DNA of 64,000 bases from Escherichia coli (GTDB lineage Bacteria; Pseudomonadota; Gammaproteobacteria; Enterobacterales; Enterobacteriaceae): assembly GCF_965641715.1 (NCBI RefSeq), contig NZ_OZ282453.1. One strand, 5' to 3'. Shown in pieces: positions 13,471-32,384 of the stretch. The notes beneath the pieces were generated by a model. It was not told the origin of the DNA. It worked only from the letters and a program-made list of their open reading frames with translations, and made no database searches. The position numbers were made by a program, and so were the translations under genes. Positions within the stretch are counted from its first letter, which is position 1. Each line of letters starts with the position of its first letter.

Positions 13471-14726
13471 TTATGAGTACCAATTAGCTCAGATAAATAA
13501 TTAGCATACCATTGCATCATTTCTCTTCTCCCTTCGAGATATTGGGCATGGTTATAAATTCCACGAATAGAGTTTTTGTCCGAATGAGCAAGCTGGGTTT
13601 CAATCCAAGCGCTGTTAAATCCTTTCTCATGTAGAATTGTACTCATCGTATGCCTGAAACCATGTCCCGTAACACGCCCTGCATATCCAATACGTTTAAA
13701 CACCTGATTGATGCTTGCTTCACTCATAAATTTGCTAGGATCGTTGCGTCCAGGGAACATCAGCGGGTAGTTCCCAGTTAGTTCTTTCAAACTTTTGAGA
13801 TGGGATAATGCTTGTTTTGGTAACGGGACAATATGGCTCCTACGCATTTTCATACGTTCTTTTGGGATCTCCCACACCGCATTATCAAAATCCACCTCTC
13901 GCCACTCACCTGCTCGTAGTTCTCCAGTTCGTAGACCTGTCAGGATAAGTAAATGCGCCCCCAACAATACAATTGGACTTCCTGAATAAGAATTAAGGGC
14001 ATTAAAGAACTCCGGTAGTTCGTTGGCTTTGAGGAATGGATAGTGGACTGCTTCATGTCCTTGCATCGCACTGGCAAGATCCGGTGCCGGATTGTAGATT
14101 GCCCTACCCGTTACGATGGCATAGCGAAAAACTTCACCGCATCGCTGACGGACTTTCTTCGCTTTCTCCATAGCGCCTCGAGCTTCTATCAACCTCAGAA
14201 CTTCAAGCAGTTCAAGGGGCTGAATATCAGCTATAGGTCTGTGCCCAATATGCGGAAAAATGTCTTTCTCAAATGCCTCAATGATGTCGGAAGCATAGCC
14301 CTCAGACCATTTGGATGATTTCATTTTGTGCCACTCTAACGCCACTTCTCTGAATGGGTTAAGTGTCTCAATCGCTGCGTTTAAAGCCTGCTTTTTGGCT
14401 TTTTTGACTTCGCCGGGATCTTCACCTGCTGCGAGTAGTTTCTTTGCGTCTTCTCGTTTTTGTCTGGCATCAGCAAGTGTGACTGTTGGATAAACACCAA
14501 AGGACAATCGTTTCTCTTTACCAGCAAAACGGTATTTCATACGCCAGTAACGCGAGCCATTAGGTTCGACCTGAAGGTATAGGCCACCTCCATCAAACAG
14601 CTTATAGCTCTTCTCTTTTCCTTTCGCAGCTTCAACCTTGCGGGCATTCAGCATCATTGGGGGCACATTTCCTAGACCGAACAGAACATGCCCCTGATTG
14701 TGCCCCCAACCGCGTGTTGATTTCAA
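13467..14726 (-). CDS. int: P4-type tyrosine integrase (probable start at MLNARKV, 14654)
   Basis: KEKSYKLFDGGGLYLQVEPNGSRYWRMKYRFAGKEK N-terminus and C-terminal HGFRHT...Y catalytic region; adjacent to tRNA-Thr. Confidence 0.9.
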   Translation of the reverse strand: MKSTRGWGHNQGHVLFGLGNVPPMMLNARKVEAAKGKEKSYKLFDGGGLYLQVEPNGSRYWRMKYRFAGKEKRLSFGVYPTVTLADARQKREDAKKLLAAGEDPGEVKKAKKQALNAAIETLNPFREVALEWHKMKSSKWSEGYASDIIEAFEKDIFPHIGHRPIADIQPLELLEVLRLIEARGAMEKAKKVRQRCGEVFRYAIVTGRAIYNPAPDLASAMQGHEAVHYPFLKANELPEFFNALNSYSGSPIVLLGAHLLILTGLRTGELRAGEWREVDFDNAVWEIPKERMKMRRSHIVPLPKQALSHLKSLKELTGNYPLMFPGRNDPSKFMSEASINQVFKRIGYAGRVTGHGFRHTMSTILHEKGFNSAWIETQLAHSDKNSIRGIYNHAQYLEGRREMMQWYANYLSELIGTHK

Positions 14727-14820
14727 GAGACAAGGGTTGACCTCAAACGTATGAAAACAACGTAATATATATGTTTTTAAATGATTTTGTTGATGTGGGT
14801 TGACTTGGGAAAACTAGGTG

Positions 14821-14838
14821 ATGGTGCCGATAATAGGA
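14821..14838. repeat. attL core: 18 bp at thrW 3' end, repeated at 3194..3211
   Basis: exact 18-mer match. Confidence 0.6.
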
Positions 14839-14897
14839 GTCGAACCTACGACCTTCGCATTACGAATGCGCTGCTCTACCAACTGAGCTATATCGGC
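14822..14897 (-). tRNA. thrW: tRNA-Thr (anticodon CGU)
   Basis: reverse complement reads GCCGATATAGCTCAGTTGGTAGAGCAGCGCATTCGTAATGCGAAGGTCGTAGGTTCGACTCCTATTATCGGCACCA. Confidence 0.9.
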
Positions 14898-15011
14898 CCT
14901 GAAAGGACATGTTCACGAACGTGAATCACGGTGGACAAGGGTAAAACTAACCGGGCGATGCGTCAATGGCCTTGTGAATCAAATGGCTACTTTTGCATCA
15001 CCCGGTTTTAT

Positions 15012-16265
15012 TTACGCACGAATGGTGTAATCACCAATGCCGATCCACTTGTAAGTGGTCAGTGCTTCCAGCCCCATTGGGCCACGCGCGTGGAGTTTTT
15101 GTGTGCTTACCGCCACTTCCGCACCCAGTCCAAACTGGCCGCCGTCGGTAAAACGCGTAGAGGCGTTAACGTAAACAGCGGACGAATCCACTTCGTTAAC
15201 AAAACGCTGGGCGTTGCGCATATCGCGGGTCAGGATCGCATCGGAGTGTTGTGTGCCGTGTTCACGAATATGGGCGATGGCATCGTCAAGATCGCTGACG
15301 ATTTTGACGTTCAAATCTAATGACAGAAACTCATCGTCATACTCTTCGGCTTTAACCGCCACCACCTTCGCGGGGCCTGCCTGCAACTGTGTCAGCGCAG
15401 CTGCATCTGCGTGTACTGTCACGCCGCTTTCCGCCATTTGTTTGCTTAATGCGGGCAGGAAGCTATCGGCGATGTTTTTATTCACCAGCAACGTTTCTAC
15501 CGTATTACATGTGCTCGGACGCTGAGTTTTCGCGTTGACGATCACTTTTAATGCTTCAGCGATCTCTGCACTTTCATCAACGTAAATATGGCATACGCCT
15601 ATACCACCTGTGATCACCGGGATCGTCGACTGTTCGCGGCACAGTTTATGCAAACCAGCCCCGCCGCGCGGGATCAGCATGTCGATGTATTTATCCATAC
15701 GCAGCATTTCACTGACCAGCGCACGGTCAGGATTATCAATCGCCTGCACGGCACCCGCCGGTAAGCCACAGGATTTCAGGGCGTCCTGAATCACCGCCAC
15801 CGTTGCAGCGTTAGTGCGACAGGTTTCTTTGCCACCGCGCAGGATCACCGCGTTACCTGTTTTCAGGCACAGCGAAGCGACATCAACCGTCACGTTCGGG
15901 CGCGCTTCATAAATCACGCCAATAACCCCCAGCGGTACGCGACGACGCTCAAGACGCAGGCCGCTGTCCAGTACGCCGCCATCGATTACCTGCCCCACCG
16001 GATCGGCGAGGTTGCACACCTGGCGCACATCATCGGCAATGCCTTTCAGCCGTGCGGGCGTCAGTGCCAGACGGTCAAGCATCGCTTCGCTAAGGCCATT
16101 GGCACGCGCGTCAGCAACATCCTGGGCGTTAGCGTTGAGGATGATTTCGCTTTGTGCTTCCAGTTCATCGGCGATTTTTTCCAGCACGCGATTTTTTTCG
16201 CGGCTGGAGAGTTGCGCTAATTTATACGAGGCTTGCTTCGCGGCAATGCCCATTTGTTCCAGCAT
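15012..16265 (-). CDS. proA: gamma-glutamyl phosphate reductase
   Basis: full-length match to ProA. Confidence 0.95.
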
Positions 16266-16276
16266 CGGCCAGCTCC

Positions 16277-17380
16277 TTAACGGGTAATCATGTCATCACG
16301 GTGAACGGCAACCGGGCCGTATTCATATCCCAGTATTGCATCAATTTCTTGCGAGTGGTGTCCGGCAATACGGCGTAATGCATCGCTGTTGTAACGACTG
16401 ACGCCGTGGGCGATATCGCGACCTTCGAGGTTACAAATGCGGATGACTTCACCACGCGAGAAATTGCCAGTCACGCTTTTAATGCCTTTCGGCAACAGGG
16501 AGCTGCCGCGTTCAAGAATGGCGGCAGTTGCCCCTTCATCTACCGTGATTTCACCCGCCGGCGGCGCACCGAAAATCCAGCGTTTACGGTTTTCAAGCGG
16601 AGTCGCCTGGGCATGGAACAGCGTACCGACGGAAATGCCTTCCATCACATCACCAATGACGCCCGGCTTGCTGCCCGCGGCAATAATGGTGTCGATACCC
16701 GCACGGCAAGCCACGTCCGCGGCCTGCAATTTGGTACTCATGCCGCCAGTTCCGAGGCCTGAAACGCTGTCACCGGCAATCGCGCGCAGTGCGTCATCAA
16801 TGCCGTAAACATCTTTAATCAGTTCTGCCTGCGGATTGCTGCGCGGGTCAGCGGTATACAAACCTTTTTGATCGGTCAGCAGCAACAGTTTATCGGCACC
16901 CGCCAGAATCGCCGCCAGCGCAGAAAGGTTGTCGTTATCGCCGACTTTAATCTCTGCCGTAGCGACAGCATCGTTCTCATTGATTACCGGAACGATATTG
17001 TTATCGAGCAACGCACGCAGGGTGTCGCGGGCGTTCAGGAAGCGTTCACGGTCTTCCATATCAGCACGAGTCAGCAGCATTTGCCCGACGTGAATGCCAT
17101 AAATCGAAAACAGCTGTTCCCACAGTTGAATCAGTCGACTCTGCCCTACCGCCGCCAGCAGTTGTTTCGAGGCGATAGTCGCTGGCAGTTCCGGGTAACC
17201 CAGGTGCTCACGTCCGGCGGCGATCGCGCCCGACGTCACAATAACAATCCGATGCCCGGCGGCATGTAACTGCGCGCACTGGCGAACAAGTTCAACGATA
17301 TGGGCACGGTTCAGACGGCGCGATCCGCCTGTTAGCACACTGGTGCCGAGTTTTACCACCAGCGTCTGGCTGTCACTCAT
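16277..17380 (-). CDS. proB: glutamate 5-kinase
   Basis: [19 protein letters not shown] start; ORF track extends upstream spuriously. Confidence 0.95.
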
Positions 17381-17568
17381 GATTCTCTGCCATTCAATTT
17401 TAGGAAAAATGATATCAAACGAACGTTTTAGCAGGACTGTCGTCGGTTGCCAACCATCTGCGAGCAAAGCATGGTGTTTTGTTGCGCGGGATCAGCAAGC
17501 CTAGCGGCAGTTGTTTACGCTTTTATTACAGATTTAATAAATTACCACATTTTAAGAATATTATTAAT

Positions 17569-17588
17569 CTGTAATATATCTTTAACAA
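17569..17588 (+). promoter_or_regulatory. Pho box (PhoB binding site) of phoE promoter
   Basis: ctgtaatatatctttaacaa ~80-100 bp upstream of phoE start. Confidence 0.5.
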
Positions 17589-17667
17589 TCTCAGGTTAAA
17601 AACTTTCCTGTTTTCAACGGGACTCTCCCGCTGAATATTCGCGCGTTAATTAAAATCAGGAATGAAA

Positions 17668-18723
17668 ATGAAAAAGAGCACTCTGGCATTAGTGGTGATG
17701 GGCATTGTGGCATCTGCATCCGTACAGGCCGCAGAAATATATAACAAAGACGGTAATAAACTGGATGTCTATGGCAAAGTTAAAGCCATGCATTATATGA
17801 GTGATAACGACAGTAAAGATGGCGACCAGAGTTATATCCGTTTTGGTTTTAAAGGCGAAACACAAATTAACGATCAACTGACTGGTTATGGTCGTTGGGA
17901 AGCAGAGTTTGCCGGTAATAAAGCAGAGAGTGATACTGCACAGCAAAAAACGCGTCTCGCTTTTGCCGGGTTGAAATATAAAGATTTGGGTTCTTTCGAC
18001 TATGGCCGTAACCTGGGCGCGTTGTATGACGTGGAAGCCTGGACCGATATGTTCCCGGAATTTGGTGGCGACTCCTCGGCGCAGACCGACAACTTTATGA
18101 CCAAACGCGCCAGCGGTCTGGCGACGTATCGGAACACCGACTTCTTCGGCGTTATCGATGGCCTGAACTTAACCCTGCAATATCAAGGGAAAAACGAAAA
18201 CCGCGACGTTAAAAAGCAAAACGGCGATGGCTTCGGCACGTCATTGACATATGACTTTGGCGGCAGCGATTTCGCCATTAGTGGGGCCTATACCAACTCA
18301 GATCGCACCAACGAGCAGAACCTGCAAAGCCGTGGCACAGGCAAGCGTGCAGAAGCATGGGCTACAGGTCTGAAATACGATGCCAATAATATTTATCTGG
18401 CAACTTTTTATTCTGAAACACGCAAAATGACGCCAATAACTGGCGGCTTTGCCAATAAGACACAGAACTTTGAAGCGGTCGCTCAATACCAGTTTGACTT
18501 TGGTCTGCGTCCATCGCTGGGTTATGTCTTATCGAAAGGGAAAGATATTGAAGGTATCGGTGATGAAGATATGGTCAATTATATCGATGTCGGGGCTACA
18601 TATTATTTCAACAAAAATATGTCAGCGTTTGTTGATTATAAAATCAACCAACTGGATAGCGATAACAAATTGAATATTAATAATGATGATATTGTCGCGG
18701 TTGGCATGACCTATCAGTTTTAA
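17668..18723 (+). CDS. phoE: phosphate-starvation outer membrane porin
   Basis: signal peptide [22 protein letters not shown]-terminal VGMTYQF. Confidence 0.95.
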
Positions 18724-18731
18724 TGATTATT

Positions 18732-18758
18732 GCCGGATGTGATGCATCCGGCATATTT
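18732..18758. terminator. hairpin terminator between convergent phoE and crl
   Basis: gccggatg..catccggc stem followed by T-rich tract. Confidence 0.5.
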
Positions 18759-18761
18759 CAC

Positions 18762-19220
<459 letters not shown>

Positions 19221-20465
19221 TTAACACAAACGTTTTTCGATCCATTCTGTGATTTCCTGAAGACCTTTGTCAAAATTCCGATACACCGGGTTAAATGGGA
19301 TCTCTAATAATTTACCGTCAGCAGATGATGAGGTGATTAAGCGTGAGTCCTCTTCCGGGCTGAACGGATCGTTCTTCCAGTAGCCTGATAACATTGGCGT
19401 TGGGCAGCGACGTCCCAGCAATCCTTGCACTTTTAATGAATAGCGATTCAGCTCCACGCGCAACGCTTCGTCGGAAGCATCATGCATCCCCAAACGACTG
19501 GCCAGAACGTCAAGATACATTTCCGGCACCTGTTGCTGGCACTTAAAATCACTCAACAGGGTATGAACTACCGGACCAAGACAGGCAACCGCTTTCAGAC
19601 GCGGCGATTCAAGGTATGCCAGACGCACGGCAACGTTAGCGCCGAAACGGAAACCAAAGGCCGCGACGCGAGTGTGATCCACCCACGGTACGTTAGGCAG
19701 TGCCTTTAAGACGTGCTGATGCAACAGGCTGGAGTCCTGGGTGAGCTTCCATTTTGAAGAAAAGCCCACCGACGGCATATCAATAGTCAGCATCGCAATG
19801 CCGCGCGGCGCAAAATAACGTTCATACAGGCTGTAATAGTCCGTCTGCATCGCATCCAGACCACCACACATTAATACCGTCGGGAACGGGCCATCGCCTT
19901 TCGGCATATGCAAAAAGCCGGTGATGGGCGCACCGCCAGGTACGGTAAACTCCATCTGCCGCATCGTGCCCGGTAGACGCTGAGCGGCCTCTTCATAGGC
20001 GCGGTTTGACAAAGCCTGCGCTTGCTCGGCCAGGTCATCTCCTTTCAGATGAGGATAGGCGGCAATGTTGTACAACGTAGCCGCATGCAGCCAGTGACGA
20101 CCACTGAGTTGCGGATCTTCTTCCGCACAGGCTTTTTGTTGCCACACCATCGCCTGGGTGGCCCACTCATAAATCCAGTTGCCGCCACGGTAGCCAATCA
20201 CCGTATCGTATAAATCATCGTCGGTACGTTCGGCATCGCTCATCACAATACGTGCCTGGACGTCGAGGATTTCGCGTGGGTCAATGCCGCGCCAGATCCA
20301 CATCAGACGGTTAATCATGCGATACCAGTGAGGGATGGTTTTACCATCAAGGGCCGACTGCACAGGCGGTTGTGCGCCGTGATTAAAGCGGCGGACTAGC
20401 GTCGAGGTTTCAGGATGTTTAAAGCGGGGTTTGAACAGGGTTTCGCTCAGGTTTGCCTGTGTCAT
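19221..20465 (-). CDS. frsA: esterase FrsA
   Basis: 414 aa alpha/beta hydrolase matching FrsA. Confidence 0.9.
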
Positions 20466-20556
20466 GGATGCAGCCTCCAGAATACTTACTGGAAACTATT
20501 GTAACCTGCCTGAAGTTAAAAAGAACAACGCCCGGCAATGCCAGGCGTTGAAAAGA

Positions 20557-21015
20557 TTAGCGACCGGAGATTGGCGGGACGAATACGACGCCCATATCCC
20601 ACGGCTGTTCGATCCAGGTATCTTGCGGGATATCAACAACATAATCATCAACCAGCGGACGACCAGCCGGTTTTGCAAAGATGGTGACAAAGTGCGCTTT
20701 TGGATACATTTCACGAATCGCAACCGCAGTACCACCGGTATCCACCAGGTCATCAATAACGATGAAGCCTTCGCCATCGCCTTCTGCGCGTTTCAGCACT
20801 TTAAGCTCGCGCTGGTTGTCGTGATCGTAGCTGGAAATACAAACGGTATCGACATGACGAATACCCAGTTCACGCGCCAGTAACGCACCCGGTACCAGAC
20901 CGCCACGGCTTACGGCAATAATGCCTTTCCATTGTTCAGAAGGCATCAGTCGGCTTGCGAGTTTACGTGCATGGATCTGCAACATGTCCCAGGTGACGAT
21001 GTATTTTTCGCTCAT
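20557..21015 (-). CDS. gpt: xanthine-guanine phosphoribosyltransferase
   Basis: 152 aa, [13 protein letters not shown]ase motif. Confidence 0.95.
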
Positions 21016-21275
21016 GTGAAGTGTCCCAGCCTGTTTATCTACGGCTTAAAAAGTGTTCGAGGGGAAAATAGGTTGCGCGAGATTATAGAGATCTGGCGCA
21101 CTAAAAACCAGTATTTCACATGAGTCCGCGTCTTTTTACGCACTGCCTCTCCCTGACGCGGGATAAAGTGGTATTCTCAAACATATCTCGCAAGCATGTC
21201 TTGTGTTGACAACATTTTCTGCTAACCCTGTGACCTGCAATACTGTTTTGCGGGTGATCGACAAGGAGACTTAAC

Positions 21276-22733
21276 GTGTCTGAACTGTCTCAATTATCTC
21301 CACAGCCGCTGTGGGATATTTTTGCCAAAATCTGTTCTATTCCTCACCCGTCCTATCATGAAGAGCAACTCGCTGAATACATTGTTGGTTGGGCAAAAGA
21401 GAAAGGTTTCCATGTCGAACGCGATCAGGTAGGTAATATCCTGATTCGTAAACCTGCTACAGCAGGTATGGAAAATCGTAAACCGGTCGTCTTGCAGGCC
21501 CACCTCGATATGGTGCCGCAGAAAAATAACGACACCGTGCATGACTTCACGAAAGATCCTATCCAGCCTTATATTGATGGCGAATGGGTTAAAGCGCGCG
21601 GCACCACGCTGGGTGCGGATAACGGCATTGGTATGGCCTCTGCACTGGCGGTTCTGGCTGACGAAAACGTGGTTCACGGTCCGCTGGAAGTGCTGCTGAC
21701 TATGACCGAAGAAGCCGGTATGGACGGTGCTTTTGGCTTACAGAGCAACTGGTTGCAGGCTGATATTCTGATTAACACCGACTCCGAAGAAGAAGGTGAA
21801 ATCTACATGGGTTGCGCGGGGGGTATCGACTTCACCTCCAACCTGCATTTAGATCGTGAAGCGGTTCCAGCTAGTTTTGAAACCTTCAAGTTAACCTTAA
21901 AAGGTCTGAAAGGCGGTCACTCCGGCGGTGAAATCCACGTTGGCCTCGGTAATGCCAACAAACTGCTGGTGCGCTTCCTGGCGGGTCATGCAGAAGAACT
22001 GGACCTGCGTCTTATCGATTTCAACGGCGGCACACTGCGTAACGCCATCCCGCGTGAAGCCTTTGCGACCATTGCTGTCGCAGCTGATAAAGTCGACGCC
22101 CTGAAATCTCTGGTGAATACCTATCAGGAGATCCTGAAAAACGAGCTGGCAGAGAAAGAGAAAAATCTGGCCTTGTTGCTGGACTCTGTAGCGAACGATA
22201 AAGCTGCCCTGATTGCGAAATCTCGCGATACCTTTATTCGTCTGCTGAACGCCACCCCGAACGGTGTGATCCGCAATTCCGACGTGGCAAAAGGTGTGGT
22301 CGAAACCTCCCTGAACGTCGGTGTGGTGACCATGACTGACAATAACGTAGAAATTCACTGCCTGATCCGTTCTCTGATCGACAGCGGTAAAGACTACGTG
22401 GTGAGCATGCTGGATTCGCTGGGTAAACTGGCTGGCGCGAAAACCGAAGCGAAAGGCGCATATCCTGGCTGGCAGCCGGACGCTAATTCTCCGGTGATGC
22501 ATCTGGTACGTGAAACCTATCAGCGTCTGTTCAACAAAACGCCGAACATCCAGATTATCCACGCGGGCCTGGAATGTGGTCTGTTCAAAAAACCGTATCC
22601 GGAAATGGACATGGTTTCTATCGGGCCAACAATCACCGGTCCACACTCTCCGGATGAGCAAGTTCACATCGAAAGCGTAGGTCATTACTGGACACTGCTG
22701 ACTGAACTGCTGAAAGAAATTCCGGCGAAGTAA
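21276..22733 (+). CDS. pepD: cytosol non-specific dipeptidase (Xaa-His dipeptidase)
   Basis: 485 aa M20 peptidase, GTG start. Confidence 0.95.
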   Translation: MSELSQLSPQPLWDIFAKICSIPHPSYHEEQLAEYIVGWAKEKGFHVERDQVGNILIRKPATAGMENRKPVVLQAHLDMVPQKNNDTVHDFTKDPIQPYIDGEWVKARGTTLGADNGIGMASALAVLADENVVHGPLEVLLTMTEEAGMDGAFGLQSNWLQADILINTDSEEEGEIYMGCAGGIDFTSNLHLDREAVPASFETFKLTLKGLKGGHSGGEIHVGLGNANKLLVRFLAGHAEELDLRLIDFNGGTLRNAIPREAFATIAVAADKVDALKSLVNTYQEILKNELAEKEKNLALLLDSVANDKAALIAKSRDTFIRLLNATPNGVIRNSDVAKGVVETSLNVGVVTMTDNNVEIHCLIRSLIDSGKDYVVSMLDSLGKLAGAKTEAKGAYPGWQPDANSPVMHLVRETYQRLFNKTPNIQIIHAGLECGLFKKPYPEMDMVSIGPTITGPHSPDEQVHIESVGHYWTLLTELLKEIPAK

Positions 22734-22745
22734 TTATTTGATTTG

Positions 22746-22781
22746 CTGCCGGATGGCGTTTAATCGCCTTCCGGCAGTTTC
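22746..22781. terminator. hairpin terminator downstream of pepD
   Basis: ctgccggatggcg..cgccttccggcag imperfect palindrome then TTTC. Confidence 0.45.
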
Positions 22782-22789
22782 ATCCTTCA

Positions 22790-23158
22790 TTATCCTTCGA
22801 TAAATGCCATCCCTGTAAACGTTCGTCGCGGGTTGCCACGTTCAATCTGGTGATGGAACATTCGCCGCTGCGATTTCAGCGCCGCGCTATTTTCCTGTTG
22901 CTGTTGCTCCAGCTTCCAGGCAATCAGCAATCGCGCCAGCCGTTTGTTAGCATGCTGGCTGCGTTCTGACTGAACCTTCACGCTAATCCCGGTTGCCAGA
23001 TGCGTGGCGCGTACCGCCGAGTCGGTTTTATTGACATGTTGACCGCCCGGCCCCGACGAACGCAGCGTGTCAGGATAACGCCCGGCTTCGGTTTCCAGCA
23101 CCGTTACCGCGACGTCTTGTCGGGTAAAAACGACCAACAGAGAAGAACGCTGCGCCAA
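22790..23158 (-). pseudogene. prfH: peptide chain release factor homolog RF-H, 5'-truncated fragment
   Basis: GGQ motif [11 protein letters not shown] present but protein only 122 aa; upstream rtcB-like fragment in another frame. Confidence 0.7.
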
Positions 23159-23324
23159 TCGGGTAGCCGCGTCCGGGGTGTAAATCTGGCATCCCCACTA
23201 CGCGCTGCATGTTGGGTAAATTTGCCGTGGTGTGTAATTGTTGGATCGCTAAACTCTCGATCCACAGGTCATCAGATGCGATGGTAAATACCGCATCGGA
23301 TAAGGGACGAATATATTTGCCCAT
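23140..23324 (-). pseudogene. ykfJ: RtcB-like ligase N-terminal fragment (ykfJ-type remnant)
   Basis: [57 protein letters not shown] then frame lost; boundaries approximate. Confidence 0.5.
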
Positions 23325-23641
23325 GTACCATTCCATTTATACTCGTCATACTTCAAGTTGCATGTACTGCGACTGCGTTCGTTCACCCCAGTCACTTACT
23401 TATGTAAGCTCCTGGGGATTCACTCGCTTGTCGCCTTCCTGCAACTCGAATTATTTAGAGTATATAAATATAAAAATCAGGAAATGGCAGACGAATCCAG
23501 GGCAAGAAAAAAAGAATTAATCCTGGAAAGGTCTGCAAAGAGTCATTGATAAAGGATTTGTCATGATTTACCTCCTTGCAGTTTGTGGAATAAGAAAACG
23601 CGCACATACCAGGCGGGCGTTATTTTCATTGCAAGCTGGAT

Positions 23642-24094
23642 TTAATGTTGCGGTTTATATCGCATATAAAAATTAGTAAACCAAGCTCCACGGCATTCAA
23701 CGCGCTGCTGCTTAACTGTCTGAAAACCATAACGTTCAAAAAAGGGTTTTGCGGTTATGCTGGCGTCCACCGTAAGTTCGGATTCAGACTTAATCAAAGG
23801 TTTTAACAAAGCGCTGGCAACCCCACGGCGGGTGTATTCAGGGTCAACAAATAACATATCGATATAATGTTCAATGCGGGAAATAAAACCAACCGGTTGT
23901 GCATTAATGACTGCAACCCGCACTTGTGATTTCGCGAGTTTCTCCTTCCAGCGAGATTCGTCAATCTGCGCCCAGGCGGCAATTTGTTGTGGTGAATAAT
24001 GCTGACTGGCGGTCATCATAACCGCTCTAATGAAAATAGCGCATAGTTGCTGAAAATCGCCAGGCTGATAGTTTCTTATTTGTATGTTATTCAT
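23642..24094 (-). CDS. yafP: GNAT-family acetyltransferase
   Basis: MNNIQIRNYQPGDFQQLCAIF start matches YafP; ORF track adds spurious upstream codons. Confidence 0.85.
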   Translation of the reverse strand: MNNIQIRNYQPGDFQQLCAIFIRAVMMTASQHYSPQQIAAWAQIDESRWKEKLAKSQVRVAVINAQPVGFISRIEHYIDMLFVDPEYTRRGVASALLKPLIKSESELTVDASITAKPFFERYGFQTVKQQRVECRGAWFTNFYMRYKPQH

Positions 24095-24125
24095 AATGTA
24101 AGTTTTGTTTTGAATACCCGCATCC

Positions 24126-24419
24126 TTATTCCTTAAAGTCATTGAAATCATCATCCGTCATATCATTAAGATATTGTTCAGCGCGGCGTGTAATTTCCTC
24201 TAATCTTGCAGCACTTGGACGGAAGCGCGCCTTTATGGGCTTTTTCTCCTCTTGTTCAGCAAGCATGTCCATTAACGCTTCGAATGCGCTGGCACTTAAG
24301 AGATATCCTGCGGGGCGATTATTAGAAAGAACCGCAACCGGTTGATCAATAAAGTATTTAGCTGGGTTTTTACGTAACTCAGTAATATTGACCGATTTTT
24401 CAGCGAGAATTCGATGCAT
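24126..24419 (-). CDS. yafN: antitoxin YafN (Phd/YefM family)
   Basis: 97 aa match to YafN. Confidence 0.9.
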   Translation of the reverse strand: MHRILAEKSVNITELRKNPAKYFIDQPVAVLSNNRPAGYLLSASAFEALMDMLAEQEEKKPIKARFRPSAARLEEITRRAEQYLNDMTDDDFNDFKE

Positions 24420-24470
24420 ACAGTGATCCCCTCATAATAATGCACACTAGAATAGACATAATAGTATACA

Positions 24471-25526
24471 TCATAATCCCAGCACCAGTTGTCTTTCCAT
24501 TTGAGGGTCAAGCAACGTCACATGCAGCCCCACCAGTCGCACACCGCGCCCACCGCGGCGTTCATCCCAGGTTTTACGCGCGGTGGCGATTAGATCAGCT
24601 TTATTCAGCCGCGGCCAGACGTGCTCCTGGGTGGTTTGCTGAAAATCGTCGAACTTTAATTTCACCCCCTGGCGAGCAATCAGTAAATCAGGTTTTACCT
24701 TTGCCAGACGGCGTTCAAGTTCCGGATACAGCCGCTCGATAATCGCTTCACATTCAGACCAGTGATGAATATCTTCCGCCATCGTGCGTTCCACGCCGAC
24801 GGATTTTCGTAACCGTTCGCTGTTAACATCGCGCTCGTCAATCCCCTGACTACGCTCCCACAAAATGCGGCCAAATTTGCCAAAGCGTTTAAGCAGAATC
24901 ACCAGATCACACTTTTGTACATCACCGCAGGTCCGCAGCCCCATCGCTTCCAGTTTTGCCGCCGAGACTTTGCCGACGCCGGGGATTTTTGCCAGCGGTA
25001 AGGTTTGCAGAAATGCCGGAACTTCTGCCGGAGTAATCACAAACTGGCCGTTGGGTTTATTCATGTCGGAGGCGATTTTGGCGAGAAACTTTACTGGTGC
25101 CACGCCCGCAGACGCCGTCAGTTGCAGCTCGCTGAAAATCGTCTGGCGGATTTCCTGGGCGATGAGGGTCGCAGAACCGTGGCAATGGACGCTGTCGGTG
25201 ACATCGAGATAAGCCTCATCCAGTGACAACGGCTCAATGCGCGAGGTGTAGCGCGAGAAGATTTCACGGATATGATTTGAGGCTTCTTTGTAGGCGTCAA
25301 AGCGCCCCGGAAGCAAGGTGAGATGTGGGCATAATTTGAGCGCCATCCCTGTCGGCATAGCGCTGCGTACGCCAAATTTACGCGCGGGATAATTGGCGGT
25401 GCTGATCACCCCCCGACGTTCGCGGCTGCCGCCAATAGCAATAGGGATATCGCGCAGGGCGGGATTGTCGCGCATCTCCACTGCGGCGAAAAAGCAGTCC
25501 ATATCCACATGAATGATTTTACGCAT
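24471..25526 (-). CDS. dinB: DNA polymerase IV
   Basis: 351 aa Y-family polymerase. Confidence 0.95.
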
Positions 25527-25540
25527 TACTCACCTCTCAA

Positions 25541-25560
25541 CACTGGTAAAGTATACAGTG
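25541..25560 (-). promoter_or_regulatory. LexA (SOS) box upstream of dinB
   Basis: minus-strand cactgtatactttaccagtg = CTG-N10-CAG, 15-34 nt upstream of dinB ATG. Confidence 0.7.
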
Positions 25561-25596
25561 ATTTCAGGGTTTGAGAAATGCGTAAAGATTCAGCAT

Positions 25597-26300
25597 TTAG
25601 CGCGTTCGCTGCGAAAGCACCTGCTGCTTATCCAGCTTTTGCACCAGCGGCTGCACCACTTTATCCCCATGCTGACCAAAGTATTGATACAGCGTATCGG
25701 ACGCACTTTTGGTCAGCACCATAATCTCAATACGCCGATTGCCCGCGCTTTGCGGATTTTTGGCATCCAGCAGCATCTGGTCAGCCATTGCGCTTACCTG
25801 CATCACTTTATCTTCCGGCATTCCGGCCTCTTCCAGCACCCGACGAGCCGAAAGCGCGCGATCGCCCGAAAGGTTCCAGTTGTTGTAGATATTGTTTTTG
25901 TAGGCCATCGCATCGGTATGCCCGGTAATAATAATTTTGTTATCGAGCGAGTCGAACACTGGCGCGAGCTCCACCAGCAGCGTTTTAAAGAACGGCATAA
26001 TCTGCGCGCTGCCGCGTTCAAACATATTGCGGTTCTGGTCGTCTTTAATCAGCACGCGTAATCCCTGCGGGACAATCTCCATCTCCAGATTCGCTTCCAT
26101 ATGCGCATCACGGGCAATGGTGTTGATACTGGTTGCCAACTCGCCAAGCTCGGTGGCGGATTTCTTCTTCAGCAGCGCCGTTTTCTCATTCACATCACGC
26201 GCTTTTTTCTCCGTCTCTTCCGGCACCGCCACGGTGGCAGGTTTTGGCGGATGAGACGGGCTGATTTTATTTAACGGCGACAGCCCACCACCGTTAAAAA
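25597..26300 (-). pseudogene. lafU: lateral flagellar motor protein LafU (MotB-like) 3' fragment
   Basis: OmpA-like C-terminus with NRRIEIMVL; 5' end replaced at junction ~26300-26330; upper boundary approximate. Confidence 0.6.
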
Positions 26301-26326
26301 TCGACTGCCCGTGCAGCGCGGCGATA

Positions 26327-28066
26327 ATGCTTTCACGCTCGGATTTACTGACGCTGTTGACAATCAACTTTATCGTCGTCACCAAAGGGGCCGAGCGTAT
26401 TTCCGAGGTTTCTGCCCGCTTTACCCTGGACGCGATGCCCGGCAAACAGATGGCGATTGACGCTGACCTTAACGCCGGGTTGATCAACCAGGCGCAGGCG
26501 CAAACCCGGCGTAAAGATGTCGCCAGCGAGGCCGATTTCTACGGCGCGATGGACGGGGCGTCGAAGTTTGTGCGCGGGGATGCCATCGCCGGGATGATGA
26601 TTCTGGCGATCAACCTGATCGGTGGTGTCTGTATCGGGATCTTCAAATACAACCTGAGCGCTGACGCTGCCTTCCAGCAATATGTGCTGATGACCATCGG
26701 CGACGGGCTGGTGGCGCAGATCCCTTCCCTGCTGCTCTCCACCGCGGCGGCGATTATCGTCACCCGCGTCAGCGACAACGGCGATATCGCCCATGACGTA
26801 CGCCACCAACTGCTGGCAAGCCCGTCGGTGCTCTACACCGCTACCGGAATTATGTTTGTGCTGGCGGTAGTGCCGGGGATGCCCCACCTGCCGTTTTTGC
26901 TGTTCAGCGCCCTGCTTGGCTTTACCGGCTGGCGGATGAGCAAACGCCCGCAGGCGGCGGAGGCGGAAGAGAAAAGCCTCGAAACGCTGACCCGTACCAT
27001 CACCGAAACCAGCGAGCAACAGGTCAGTTGGGAGACTATTCCGCTGATCGAGCCTATCAGTTTAAGCCTCGGCTACAAGCTGGTGGCGCTGGTGGACAAA
27101 GCCCAGGGCAACCCGCTCACCCAGCGTATTCGCGGCGTGCGACAGGTGATATCCGACGGCAACGGCGTGCTGCTGCCGGAGATCCGCATTCGGGAAAACT
27201 TCCGCCTTAAGCCCAGTCAGTACGCTATTTTCATCAACGGCATTAAGGCCGATGAAGCAGATATTCCGGCGGATAAACTGATGGCCCTGCCCTCCAGCGA
27301 AACCTACGGCGAGATAGACGGCGTGCTGGGGAACGACCCGGCGTACGGGATGCCGGTGACCTGGATCCAGCCCGCGCAGAAGGCGAAGGCACTAAATATG
27401 GGGTATCAGGTGATCGACAGCGCCAGCGTGATTGCCACCCATGTGAATAAGATTGTACGCAGCTATATTCCTGATTTGTTTAACTATGACGACATCACAC
27501 AGTTGCATAACCGTTTGTCGTCGATGGCACCGCGCCTGGCGGAGGATTTAAGCGCGGCGCTGAATTACAGCCAGTTGCTGAAAGTGTACCGCACACTACT
27601 GACCGAAGGCGTTTCCCTGCGCGACATCGTCACCATCGCCACCGTGCTGGTCGCCAGTAGCGCGGTGACCAAAGATCACATTCTGCTGGCGGCCGATGTG
27701 CGCCTGGCGCTGCGGCGCAGCATTACTCATCCGTTCGTTCGCAAACAGGAGCTGACGGTGTATACGCTGAATAATGAGCTGGAAAATCTGCTCACCAACG
27801 TAGTGAATCAGGCGCAACAGGGCGGCAAAGTGATGCTCGACAGCGTGCCGGTCGACCCGAATATGCTCAACCAGTTCCAGAGCACGATGCCGCAGGTGAA
27901 GGAGCAGATGAAAGCGGCGGGGAAAGATCCGGTGCTGCTGGTGCCGCCGCAGTTGCGTCCTTTGCTGGCGCGCTATGCAAGGTTGTTTGCGCCGGGGCTG
28001 CATGTGCTGTCGTATAACGAAGTGCCGGACGAGCTGGAGTTGAAGATTATGGGGGCCTTGAGTTGA
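26327..28066 (+). pseudogene. lfhA: lateral flagellar export protein LfhA (FlhA-like), promoterless 5'-truncated fragment
   Basis: begins inside the FlhA motif FTLDAMPGKQMAIDADLNAGLI..FYGAMDGASKFVRGDAIAG; lacks N-terminal TM segments. Confidence 0.65.
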
Positions 28067-28096
28067 TTGAGGAGGCTATATAAGGGCCAGGACCGT

Positions 28097-28185
28097 CCCC
28101 TCGCCCCTTTGGGGAGAGGGTTAGGGTGAGGGGAAAGTGCGCGCTGAGCCCCTCACCCCGGCCCTCTCCCCAAAGGGGCGAGGGA
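28097..28185. repeat. REP-type imperfect palindrome (two ~36-bp inverted arms)
   Basis: ccctcgcccctttggggagagggttagggtgagggg ... cccctcaccccggccctctccccaaaggggcgaggg. Confidence 0.6.
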
Positions 28186-28227
28186 GAAAATCGTGTACGA
28201 CTTTAGCTTTTTCGCGGTATTGCCGTC

Positions 28228-28977
28228 CTACAAAATCGTCTCTTCCGTCAAAATCCGCCGCGCGCCTAAAAAATGATCCTGCCAGAAAGGTTCAGCTAAC
28301 CGACTTACCCGAATGGTTTCCCCGGTGCGCGGTGACTCAATAAACTGACCGTCGCCCAGATACACCCCCATATGGTCGGCAATCTCGCGGCTGTGGATAT
28401 GGAAAAACAGCAAATCTCCCCGGCGCAGGTCGTTATTCGCCACAATCGTTGCCCGATGGTAGTGATACATCTCATTAGCCGTACGCGGGAGCTTCGCCTC
28501 GAGGATCTTGTTGTAGGCATAAAAAACCAACCCGCTACAGTCAAAGCCTTTATCAGGCCGCGTGCCGCCCCAGACGTAAGGCTTGCCAAGCTGCTGCTCC
28601 AGGCGGTGAATCGCCACTTCGGTGATGTTATGCAGATGGTCGCTGCTTAAAAAGTGGTTATTTTCCGCCAGCGCCTGCCAGCGTCTGTCACTCGCCTTGA
28701 GCGGCGCAGGAAACCATTCTGGATGCTGTTTTATCTGTTCGCGGTTGTGCTGGCGCAGCGCCCTTCTGCTTTCGGCATTGCCTTCCACAATATAGCTGGC
28801 CTGCTTTTTCAGATGGGTTTGGTACTGTTTTAATAAACGCGCACGGTTTTGCATCCGCTGGCGGGCGGCGTAGCTGAAAGAGATATGTGATGTGGTGGCG
28901 CAGGCAAATGAAGAAAACGGCAAGCAAAGCAACAGTAATCCCGACAACACAAAAGAGGGAATCGACGGCAAAGACAT
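28228..28977 (-). CDS. yafL: NlpC/P60-family lipoprotein endopeptidase
   Basis: lipoprotein signal and C-terminal NlpC/P60 region (YVWGG...DCSGLV...H). Confidence 0.85.
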   Translation of the reverse strand: MSLPSIPSFVLSGLLLLCLPFSSFACATTSHISFSYAARQRMQNRARLLKQYQTHLKKQASYIVEGNAESRRALRQHNREQIKQHPEWFPAPLKASDRRWQALAENNHFLSSDHLHNITEVAIHRLEQQLGKPYVWGGTRPDKGFDCSGLVFYAYNKILEAKLPRTANEMYHYHRATIVANNDLRRGDLLFFHIHSREIADHMGVYLGDGQFIESPRTGETIRVSRLAEPFWQDHFLGARRILTEETIL

Positions 28978-29154
28978 TCTCAATAATGGCTGGTCATGCA
29001 TTGATGTTGCAGTGTATCCTGGCCCGTACCTGAACAAACTTAATAAACCATTATTATAAAATTAATAAATATATTTCAGTTTATTATGTAAAAACATCCG
29101 TTTATTAAATTACTCATGGATTGTCGCTGTTGCTCATTTGAGCTACAATTCAAG

Positions 29155-29170
29155 CTGAATAAATATACAG
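29155..29170 (+). promoter_or_regulatory. LexA (SOS) box upstream of dinJ
   Basis: CTGaataaatataCAG, 17 nt upstream of dinJ ATG. Confidence 0.6.
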
Positions 29171-29186
29171 CACAGGAGATACCCCA

Positions 29187-29447
29187 ATGGCTGCTAACGC
29201 GTTTGTTCGCGCCCGAATCGATGAAGATCTGAAGAATCAGGCGGCGGACGTACTGGCCGGGATGGGGCTGACCATCTCTGACCTGGTTCGCATAACCCTC
29301 ACAAAGGTCGCGCGTGAAAAGGCATTGCCGTTTGATTTACGCGAGCCTAATCAATTAACCATTCAATCAATCAAAAACAGCGAAGCTGGCGTTGATGTTC
29401 ATAAGGCCAAAGACGCCGATGATTTATTTGATAAATTAGGAATTTAA
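29187..29447 (+). CDS. dinJ: antitoxin DinJ (RelB family)
   Basis: 86 aa match to DinJ. Confidence 0.9.
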   Translation: MAANAFVRARIDEDLKNQAADVLAGMGLTISDLVRITLTKVAREKALPFDLREPNQLTIQSIKNSEAGVDVHKAKDADDLFDKLGI

Positions 29448-29449
29448 AT

Positions 29450-29730
29450 ATGATTCAAAGGGATATTGAATACTCGGACAATTTTCAAAGGATGTAAAAC
29501 TTGCACAAAAGCGTCATAAGGATATGAATAAATTGAAATATCTTATGACGCTTCTTATCAATAATACTTTACCGCTTCCAGCTGTTTATAAAGACCACCC
29601 GCTGCAAGGTTCATGGAAAGGTTATCGCGATGCTCATGTCGAACCGGACTGGCTCCTGATTTACAAACTTACCGATAAACTTTTACGATTTGAGAGAACT
29701 GGAACTCACGCGGCGCTCTTTGGGTAAAGC
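29450..29730 (+). pseudogene. yafQ: toxin YafQ, frameshifted near the 5' end
   Basis: ATG at 29450 gives MIQRDIEYSDNFQRM then TAA; the YafQ body (MNKLKYLMTLL...) continues from 29524 in a different frame. Confidence 0.65.
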
Positions 29731-29882
29731 CCGCTTCCGATGAAATTTGTAAACCCTGCGCCGACAGGCTTGCGTAAAACTCTTTTGGTGATAATGTGAG
29801 CCTTCCAAATCCAGACTATTCCGATTTGGGATCCATTTTGCCGTCCTGGCGTGTGTAACCGTTTTATCAAGGAATAAGCAGT

Positions 29883-30623
29883 ATGCGTAAAATCGCATTA
29901 ATTCTTGCGATGTTGTTGATCCCGTGCGTTTCGTTTGCCGGTTTGCTGGGCAGCAGTAGCTCGACCACGCCAGTGAGCAAAGAGTATAAGCAGCAGTTGA
30001 TGGGATCCCCTGTCTACATCCAGATCTTCAAGGAAGAACGTACGCTCGATCTCTACGTCAAAATGGGCGAGCAATATCAACTGCTCGACAGCTATAAAAT
30101 CTGTAAATATTCCGGCGGCTTAGGGCCAAAACAGCGTCAGGGCGATTTCAAAAGCCCGGAAGGGTTTTATAGCGTCCAGCGTAATCAGTTAAAACCAGAC
30201 AGCCGTTACTACAAAGCGATTAATATTGGTTTCCCCAATGCCTATGACCGTGCGCATGGTTATGAAGGGAAATACCTGATGATCCACGGCGATTGTGTTT
30301 CCATCGGCTGCTACGCGATGACCAATCAGGGCATTGACGAGATTTTCCAGTTCGTTACTGGCGCACTGGTATTTGGTCAGCCGAGCGTGCAAGTGAGCAT
30401 TTACCCGTTCCGCATGACCGACGCTAATATGAAGCGCCACAAATATTCCAACTTTAAGGACTTCTGGGAGCAACTGAAGCCGGGTTACGACTACTTTGAG
30501 CAAACCCGTAAGCCACCGACCGTTTCTGTGGTCAATGGTCGTTACGTGGTCAGCAAGCCGTTAAGCCACGAAGTTGTGCAACCACAGCTGGCATCAAACT
30601 ACACGCTCCCCGAGGCAAAATAA
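29883..30623 (+). CDS. yafK: L,D-transpeptidase-like periplasmic protein
   Basis: signal peptide plus YkuD-like domain. Confidence 0.85.
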
Positions 30624-31361
30624 GCGCCATTCGCCTGGCATAATTTTTTGCCAGGTTTCATTGCCCGTCAGCGGCTGTGTCGCAATCACCGTGACCACAT
30701 CATTCGGTGTGGTCTGCGAGCTGAAGTCGATTTCCACATCCTGATCCAGCAACGTTGCCACGCCAAACGGCGCGCGGCGGGTGATCCAGTGTAAATTAGT
30801 CGAGCAATACGCCATTACATAGCGCCCGTCCGAAAGCAGCATGTTGAAAACGCCCTTCGCCCGCAGTTCATCCGCCAGTGAGGCGATATATTTAAACACT
30901 GCCGCCATGTTGCCCGGCGTGCGCGGGTAACGCTGCGTTAATTTATGCAGCAGCCAGCAAAAGGCTTTTTCGCTGTCGGTTTCACCGACCGGGCGGAAGT
31001 TGCCGGTTTCCAGTGATTTGTAGCCCGTCAGTTGCCCGTTATGGGCATAAGTCCAGTTACGCCCCCATAACTCGCGGGTAAACGGGTGAGTATTTTCCAG
31101 CGCCACCTCGCCCCGATTAGCCTGGCGAATATGAGCCACCACCGAACAAGATTTTATCGGGTAGTCCTGGACCAGTTTGGCGATAGGTGAGTTAAAGCTG
31201 GGTTGCGGATCTTTAAATGTGCGACAGCCTTTACCTTCGTAAAAGGTAATGCCCCAGCCATCTTTATGTGGCCCGGTTCCACCACCACGCTGCACCAGAC
31301 CGGTGAAACTAAAGCAGATATCGGTAGGGACGTTGGCGCTCATCCCGAGCAATTCGCACAT
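30594..31361 (-). CDS. yafJ: class II glutamine amidotransferase
   Basis: [12 protein letters not shown] start with N-terminal catalytic Cys. Confidence 0.85.
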
Positions 31362-31384
31362 GGGTAACCTCCACAACAGCGGGA

Positions 31385-31565
31385 GCGCATGGCCCCCGGC
31401 GAAGATTGATTTAAGAATTTTCAGGTCGGATGCGGCGTGAACGCATTATTCGGCCTACGGTTCGCGTACAGATTTGTAGGCATGATAAGACGCGTCAGCG
31501 TCGCATCAGGCATCAGCGCACAAATGCCGGATGCGGCGTAAACGTCTTATCCGGCCTACGCCAGA
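31385..31565. repeat. REP/BIME cluster (about 3 REP units in alternating orientation)
   Basis: gccggatgcggcgtgaacgc..., gtaggcatgataagacgcgtcagcgtcgcatcaggcat, gccggatgcggcgtaaacgtcttatccggcctacg. Confidence 0.8.
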
Positions 31566-31566
31566 C

Positions 31567-32145
31567 TTACTTAACCATCTCTTTTTCAATCAACTGGATC
31601 AGGATATGGATCACTTTAATGTGAATCTCCTGAATGCGGTCGGCATAACCAAAGTGCGGTACGCGAATTTCGATATCCGCCGTGCCAGCCATTTTGCCGC
31701 CGTCTTTACCGGTCAGGGTGATCACTTTCATTCCCTTCTCACGCGCCGCTGCGATCGCTTTGATCACGTTTGCAGAGTTACCGGAGGTGGAGATCCCCAG
31801 CAGTACATCGCCTTCGCGACCTACCGCTTCAACGTAACGGGAGAAAATATCATTGAAACCGAAATCGTTACCGACGCATGAAATATGACTAACGTCAGAA
31901 ATAGCAATCGCCGGGTAGCCCGGACGGTTTTCACGGTAGCGACCGGTCAACTCTTCGGCAAAGTGCATAGCGTCGCAATGGGAACCGCCGTTGCCGCAGG
32001 AAAGCACTTTGCCACCGGCTTTAAAGCTGTCTGCTAACAGGACCGCCGCGCGCTGAATGGCGTGAATATTGGCGTCATCTTTTAAAAAGTTAGCCAGCGT
32101 TTCCGCCGCTTCGTTCAGTTCGTTACGAATAAGATCCTGGTACAT
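31567..32145 (-). CDS. gmhA: phosphoheptose isomerase
   Basis: [20 protein letters not shown] start, SIS domain. Confidence 0.95.
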
Positions 32146-32384
32146 GAGGATATCCTTCAGCATAAATGTAATAGACAAAATGCAGTGTACCGGATACCGC
32201 CAAAAGCGAGAAGTACGGGCAGGTGCTATGACCAGGACTTTTTGACCTGAAGTGCGGATAAAAACAGCAACAATGTGAGCTTTGTTGTAATTATATTGTA
32301 AACACATTGCTAAATGTTTTTACATCCACTACAACCATATCATCACAAGTGGTCAGACCTCCTACAAGTAAGGGGCTTTTCGTT

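Follow-up and report, generated by a model that had tools for sequence, protein, structure and literature searches.

The RtcB2–PrfH module counters cleavage of the 16S rRNA of the colicin E3/CdiA type. PrfH enters the A site of ribosomes in which the 16S rRNA has been cut between A1493 and G1494, where its GGQ motif (with Q122) hydrolyses the peptidyl-tRNA, and RtcB2 (with H294 as the catalytic residue) then religates the rRNA in the 30S subunit that has been freed (PMC9304027). In the domain map of PrfH, residues 2–98 and 180–204 belong to the rRNA-recognition part and residues 108–161 form the GGQ domain (Tian et al. 2022, PMC9304027). The cryo-EM structure shows that R83, H85, H86, R88, K89 and N90 bind the 3'-phosphate of the cleaved A1493, helix 18 and the protein S12, and mutants of Q122 of PrfH and of H294 of RtcB2 (H294N) were made in the same study (PMC9304027).

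In some strains of Escherichia coli this operon is damaged. A deletion of about 1000 nt was found in K-12 MG1655, W3110, Sakai and EDL933, the genes being intact in CFT073, 042 and UTI89 (Baranov et al. 2006, PMC1586002), and the deletion of K-12 is likewise mentioned by Tian et al. 2022 (PMC9304027). The operon of BW25113 is truncated and non-functional, and the intact operon guards ATCC 25922 against colicin E3 (PMC9223846). Knockouts of the remnants in K-12 (BW25113) have no colicin E3 phenotype, and K-12 is sensitive to colicin E3 unless it is given an intact operon (PMC9223846). The K-12-type pseudogene pair is therefore already known, its deletion having been described in 2006.

The locus described here is part of a stretch of 64,000 nucleotides of E. 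coli DNA, which in its full length is referred to as the window. With very little doubt, the region between pepD and yafP is a non-functional remnant of rtcB2-prfH, the operon having been destroyed by two nested deletions. It is a pseudogene pair of the known K-12 "ykfJ/prfH" type, shortened by a rarer deletion of 189 bases.

Organization of the locus and reliability of the sequence

The gene order is gpt-pepD-[remnant]-yafP-yafN-dinB, with the remnant on the minus strand (Table 1). The region was compared by megablast with 5426 complete E. coli genomes, nearly all of which were matched, in several structural classes. The loci chosen for comparison were those of UTI89 (intact), a K-12-type strain, PS10-3 (the best structural match) and six further variants. 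The intact operon of UTI89 (rtcB2 of 1140 nt and prfH of 615 nt, overlapping by ATGA) served as the reference, and its coordinates are given below in the numbering of the UTI89 locus, L003.

Two overlapping open reading frames of the minus strand run over the remnant, one of 88 aa (23336..23070) and one of 122 aa (23158..22790). The ATG at 23324 is the annotated start of rtcB2 and maps, in the alignment, to the rtcB2 start of UTI89 (L003 2533), and the TAA at 22792-22790 is the stop codon of prfH. The first codon bases of the rtcB frame fall on coordinates that are 2 mod 3, and those of the prfH frame on coordinates that are 1 mod 3.

The window agrees at 100% identity with two independent NCBI assemblies (over 7458 bp) and with a Logan contig (over 5137 bp). 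The structure of the remnant is therefore not an assembly error, and this source of it is ruled out.

Table 1. Features of the rtcB2-prfH remnant and of its surroundings, in coordinates of the window
Feature	Coordinates	Strand	Basis or remark
pepD	21276-22733	+	Neighbour of the rtcB2-prfH remnant
Hairpin in the convergent pepD/prfH spacer	22741..22777	.	Minimum free energy -25.2 kcal/mol, z = -6.9 versus shuffles
prfH remnant, whole	22790-23117	-	Fused out of frame to the rtcB2 piece; GGQ kept
prfH piece 2, intact residues 117-204 and stop	22790..23056	-	Pfam RF-1, translation, domain map of Tian et al. 2022
Deletion 2 junction, lone surviving repeat copy ACGCTGCGTTCG	23057..23068	-	Alignments
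prfH piece 1, 49 nt between the deletions, about PrfH residues 33-49	23069..23117	-	Alignments
Deletion 1 junction, within an imperfect 8-nt microhomology	23118..23125	-	Alignments; break 23118/23117
rtcB2 5' remnant (K-12 'ykfJ'), start and codons 1-69 of 379	23118..23324	-	Alignment to UTI89 rtcB2
ERIC (IRU) repeat directly upstream of the rtcB2 start	23342..23465	-	Primer sites, Rfam
yafP	23642-24094	-	Neighbour of the rtcB2-prfH remnant

The remnants of rtcB2 and prfH

When read from the ATG at 23324, the 88-aa frame has the sequence MGKYIRPLSD...GRFYP, which is the N-terminus of RtcB2. Past codon 69 this frame stays open, out of frame, in DNA that is derived from prfH, and it reaches a stop at 23070-23072. 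The Pfam RtcB profile (PF01139) is matched with 23 bits (E 5.4e-5) over profile positions 1–33 of 426 only, and a full RtcB domain is not found; a fragment would be expected to fall short of the gathering score of 27, as this one does, and the intact RtcB2 of UTI89 reaches 249 bits. The DNA of the rtcB remnant agrees with the K-12-type remnant at 223 of 224 positions and with the 5' end of the intact UTI89 rtcB2 at 218 of 224, by which a chance resemblance is excluded. The same 207 nt carry the RefSeq label 'RtcB family protein, incomplete' in PS10-3 and in the K-12-type strain, and YkfJ is the UniRef name of an 88-aa member of the same 90%-identity cluster. With codons 70–379 deleted, the catalytic His294 of RtcB2 (residue number from PMC9304027) is absent.

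The prfH remnant still encodes about residues 31–49 and 113–204 of PrfH. Linker 2 and the C-terminal strand region lie in its second piece, together with most of the GGQ domain, whose GGQ codons are located at 23047-23039. The 122-aa frame, which ends in ...GMAFIEG*, is recognized by the Pfam RF-1 profile (PF00472) with 86.5 bits (E 1.6e-24), well above the gathering score of 35. The rRNA-recognition part is disrupted, residues 1 to about 30 and 50–112 being deleted.

Inspection of the sequence at the locus reveals no ATG or Shine-Dalgarno sequence ahead of the prfH frame, which opens with TTG or GTG only, and a start of its own that overlaps the rtcB2 stop (ATGA) is not present. A promoter and terminator scan finds no promoter-like site on the minus strand, with no more sites than in shuffled sequence.

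A deletion of 1027 bp shared with K-12 and O157:H7

In the alignment with the intact operon of UTI89, neither gene of the window is full length, and a single segment of 1027 bp (L003 2740-3766) is found to be missing. This segment, deletion 1, contains rtcB2 codons 70–379, the ATGA stop/start overlap (L003 3669-3672) and roughly the first 30 codons of prfH. The original prediction, made from the sequence alone, had been that an RtcB-like N-terminal fragment at 22790-23324 runs into a 5'-truncated prfH with a GGQ motif in a different frame, and that an internal deletion removed most of the ligase gene together with the prfH start. The alignment bears this out: both pieces are present at exactly these coordinates on the minus strand, the start and about 30 codons of prfH are absent, the two frames differ as described above, and one deletion accounts for the loss from both genes.

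The junction lies in a microhomology which reads ACCCGACA in the window, ACCCGGCA in the intact rtcB2 and (A/G)CCCGACA in the intact prfH. The endpoints are the same in the K-12-type strain, O157:H7 Z1813, s3502, JS316, CNR85I8, PS10-3 and the window. With a query that spans the junction, TTTTTACCCG[G/A]CAAGACGTCG is found in 2689 of the 5426 complete E. coli genomes, K-12 W3110 and O157:H7 included.

The window thus carries the K-12-type deletion allele, in which the loss of 1027 bp at the yafP-pepD locus places codon 69 of rtcB2 next to about codon 31 of prfH. The surrounding synteny is also shared, with pepD/gpt/frsA on one side and yafP/dinB on the other. The ykfJ/prfH pair of K-12 (b0235/b0236), and that of Sakai and EDL933, occupies this same locus with the same deletion and endpoints; in K-12, as here, 69 codons of rtcB are left and the two pieces are shifted in frame in the same way. 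The intact RtcB2-PrfH of ATCC 25922, UTI89 and CFT073 is encoded by orthologous DNA, to which the retained parts are 97–98% identical. Of the intact PrfH, the GGQ motif (Q122) and the greater part of the GGQ domain are conserved in the window, whereas RtcB2 residues 70–379, the prfH start and most of the rRNA-recognition domain are missing from it.

Deletion 1 fused codon 69 of rtcB2 with about codon 31 of prfH at ACCCG[G/A]CA, and the position of the junction in this microhomology points to illegitimate recombination or replication slippage. It took the catalytic core of RtcB2, with His294, and the prfH start, leaving the pieces in different frames. For the two deletions, we infer a mechanism that makes use of microhomology or slippage.

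A second, in-frame deletion of 189 bp within prfH

Compared with K-12 and O157:H7, the window has in addition an in-frame deletion of 189 bp and a patch of substitutions. This second deletion, which is absent from K-12 and O157:H7, had been missed in the original prediction. Deletion 2 removes PrfH residues 50–112 (63 codons, L003 3816-4004), and the contact residues R83, H85, H86, R88, K89 and N90 are all within this segment. It runs between two 12-bp direct repeats, ACGCTGCGTTCG, which encode TLRS at residues 50 and 113 of the intact PrfH and of which one copy is left. It is contiguous in 32 of the 5426 complete genomes (33 when TR01 is counted).

The same 189 bp have been lost independently in an otherwise intact operon. 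In the Logan contig L016 (SRR16945664, 3001-3426), which was found by an exact-protein look-up, rtcB2 is identical to that of UTI89 and the prfH N-terminus is intact, but the same 63 codons are missing and there is no patch; the PrfH product (P0015) has 141 aa. This type of allele, an intact operon with the 189-bp loss, was not found among the 5426 complete genomes. The independent loss in L016 identifies the pair of TLRS repeats as a recurrent deletion hotspot, and such a recurrence fits slippage between short direct repeats.

Further decay is also seen in other lineages. On the deletion 1 allele of JS316 and CNR85I8 a different, frameshifting deletion of 169 bp has removed the GGQ motif, and in 2012C-4606 rtcB is frameshifted.

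A more complex arrangement is observed in the O157:H7 strain TR01 (L011, NZ_CP033605.1, 2996-3517), in which the segment with the patch and the junction occurs twice, on either side of 106 nt from the middle of the 189-bp segment. These 106 nt are identical to O157:H7 Z1813, and the flanks are of the deleted type. TR01 was considered as a tandem-repeat precursor of deletion 2, and this was rejected; the pattern is the one expected of a reference-guided consensus built from reads of the deleted allele. This suggests, but does not prove, that the double junction is an artefact of reference-guided assembly of a 189-bp-deleted allele and not a biological intermediate. Deletion 2 is probably present in TR01 as well.

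A patch of seven substitutions next to deletion 2

The 49 nt between the two deletions contain seven substitutions within 17 nt (23074-23090). This piece is identical to that of PS10-3 at 49 of 49 positions, to the K-12-type piece at 42 of 49 and to UTI89 at 41 of 49. The changes are ACA>ACC, ACG>GCC, GGC>GGG, CGC>CGT, TAC>TAT and TCT>CCT, in six consecutive codons; five of the seven are at third codon positions, and the amino acid changes are T44A and S48P. The 23-mer with the patch is GAAGCCGGGCGTTATCCTGACAC, and the continuation of the undeleted prfH is GCTGCGTTC(G/A)GC. K-12 and O157:H7 do not have the patch.

Simple slippage, as considered above for the 189-bp loss, does not account for the patch. 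It was examined as filler DNA copied from elsewhere, and no other copy of the 23-mer (with up to three mismatches) is found in the window or in the intact locus. Nor is it convincing as a mosaic built from the DNA upstream of each repeat, since only three of six differences, judged by eye, fit. Our best guess, unproven, is that a diverged, coding prfH outside the sampled sequences donated the patch as a short conversion tract.

It is possible, though less likely than not, that the patch and deletion 2 were generated in one event, in which a tract of a diverged and still coding prfH was recombined into the locus, its left end being paired correctly and its right end at the second TLRS repeat, so that the 63 codons were lost. 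In the complete genomes the patch and deletion 2 always occur together, and they do so on at least two flanking backgrounds. Apart from the patch and deletion 2, the window does not differ from O157:H7 Z1813 between 23641 and 22905, and in PS10-3 the same patch and deletion 2 are found on another background. The same cassette on different backgrounds means either that it has moved between them or that its flanks have been overwritten by recombination. The clustering of the changes in six consecutive codons, mostly at third positions, is also in agreement with a coding donor, as is the finding that a Citrobacter-like prfH has the patch states ACC, GGG, TAT and CCT at the same codons and that orthologues in neighbouring genera have Ala and Pro at the patch positions.

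Against a single event stands the donor search. The exact 23-mer and a degenerate pattern coding for the peptide (16 residues) each have no match in 100,044 GTDB species representatives, the exact 23-mer has none in JGI metagenomes, and no donor is found among the intact E. coli alleles or among the plasmid-borne copies of prfH, all of which are K-12-like or undeleted F'-type or chromosomal pieces. Furthermore, the excess of third-position changes reaches a p of only about 0.045 in a binomial estimate, and L016 has deletion 2 without the patch. The more far-reaching proposal, that one homology-facilitated illegitimate recombination with a diverged, so far unsampled prfH left the patch as its footprint and that the cassette then spread among E. 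coli backgrounds by short-tract recombination, is unlikely.

The variable base at the deletion 1 junction

The carriers of deletion 1 differ at base 23120, which is A in the window, s3502 and O157:H7 Z1813, and G in the K-12-type strain, JS316, CNR85I8 and PS10-3. Of the two copies of the microhomology, that of prfH agrees with the A state and that of rtcB with the G state. Crossovers 3 nt apart would be expected to give this result, and in this way deletion 1 of the window could have arisen independently of the K-12 event at the same microhomology. Such a second origin is distinctly unlikely: every carrier has the same 1027-bp length and identical flanks, the difference is more simply explained by one G-to-A change or by the segregation of one heteroduplex, and such sites are shuffled by recombination among E. 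coli lineages. The window and PS10-3, moreover, both have deletion 2 and yet differ at this base. Deletion 1 is an old allele that K-12 and O157:H7 have in common and that about half of the complete E. coli genomes carry.

Flanking elements and differences in the neighbourhood

The strong hairpin between the convergent pepD and prfH (Table 1) is conserved in every strain that was aligned and, to judge from its sequence, probably represents a REP-like element or a terminator shared by the two genes. On the other side of the remnant, the ERIC element contains an exact ERIC1R site (23402-23423) and an ERIC2 site with one mismatch (23380-23401). In the Rfam search the element is matched by V_AS5 with 48.9 bits, which is below the gathering score of 96, and there is no match besides this one. 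The element is full length in the window and in the K-12-type strain, is shortened by 72 bp in four strains and is lacking in UTI89, a polymorphism that is thus independent of the deletions.

Further differences are observed beyond the remnant. In the window the toxin gene yafO is deleted (24095-24125, between yafP and yafN at 24126..24419 on the minus strand). About 376-379 bp are missing in comparison with K-12-type loci, with a TTAT-like microhomology, and about the first 26 nt are left. The antitoxin gene yafN of the yafNO toxin-antitoxin pair is intact and orphaned. In PS10-3 and 09-00049, yafN and yafO are both missing and dinB abuts yafP. At 28062-28222 of the window, the REP-associated tyrosine transposase gene rayT is absent; in the K-12-like strain LR-64-2 it is found at L012 14859-15356. 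In the window the site holds 161 nt of REP-like inverted repeats; LR-64-2 has 896 nt at this place.

Over the 20 kb from 14000 to 34000 of the window, the best identity among the 5426 RefSeq complete E. coli genomes is 98.0%, with blocks that range from 96.8% to 98.8%. The lineage may therefore be one with few representatives among these complete genomes, the region may be a mosaic, or both. A Shigella origin was considered in view of this low identity and set aside: no IS1 end was found, and NCBI assigns the exact PepD, YkfJ-like and PrfH-remnant proteins to E. coli.

Functional consequences

The catalytic His294, the prfH start and about residues 1–30 and 50–112 of PrfH are all gone, so that neither step of the published mechanism is possible. 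We infer a loss of function of the remnant from these losses, from the lack of an ATG and a Shine-Dalgarno sequence at the prfH frame and from the remnant of K-12, which is less decayed and shows no phenotype when it is knocked out. From its sequence, the strain is predicted to be without RtcB2-PrfH protection against 16S rRNA cleavage of the colicin E3/CdiA-CT type, like K-12.

Stand-alone peptidyl-tRNA hydrolases of the ArfB type have an independently translated GGQ domain and use a C-terminal tail to probe the empty mRNA channel. ArfB (YaeJ), a stand-alone ribosome rescue factor, is likewise a small protein that consists essentially of an RF-1/GGQ domain and a C-terminal extension. The likeness of the prfH fragment to ArfB is one of size and domain content only, the fragment being a deletion product without a start or ribosome-binding site of its own, and its C-terminal part is presumably the end of the recognition domain of PrfH and not an ArfB-type tail.

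It is highly improbable that the remnants are alive, either the 88-aa YkfJ or the GGQ-only PrfH fragment (103–122 aa) being expressed in a new role, for example as a stand-alone peptidyl-tRNA hydrolase like ArfB: both frames are open, the GGQ domain that gives the RF-1 match is almost intact, the rtcB2 start codon and upstream region are kept and the deletion 1 allele persists in about half of the complete genomes, but the prfH frame, lacking ATG and Shine-Dalgarno sequence, is out of frame with the sole retained start, the further decay differs by lineage (the 189-bp deletion, or the 169-bp deletion that takes the GGQ motif), GGQH to GGQN and other substitutions occur in cluster members, the rRNA-recognition residues are deleted and the BW25113 knockouts of the K-12 remnants have no colicin E3 phenotype (PMC9223846). 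Expression of the GGQ-only fragment as an ArfB-like factor is less likely than the spread of the patch cassette.

For the annotation, the non-functional remnant means that two pseudogene fragments are to be recorded here, and not two open reading frames; beyond annotation this is of little importance. If the patch cassette has indeed spread among E. coli backgrounds, the locus would be a natural and datable marker of the horizontal movement of pseudogene alleles. For the population genetics of E. coli, one old deletion breaks the operon in about half of the complete genomes, its lineage-specific decay goes on, and the TLRS repeat pair in prfH is a recurrent hotspot of the 189-bp deletion.
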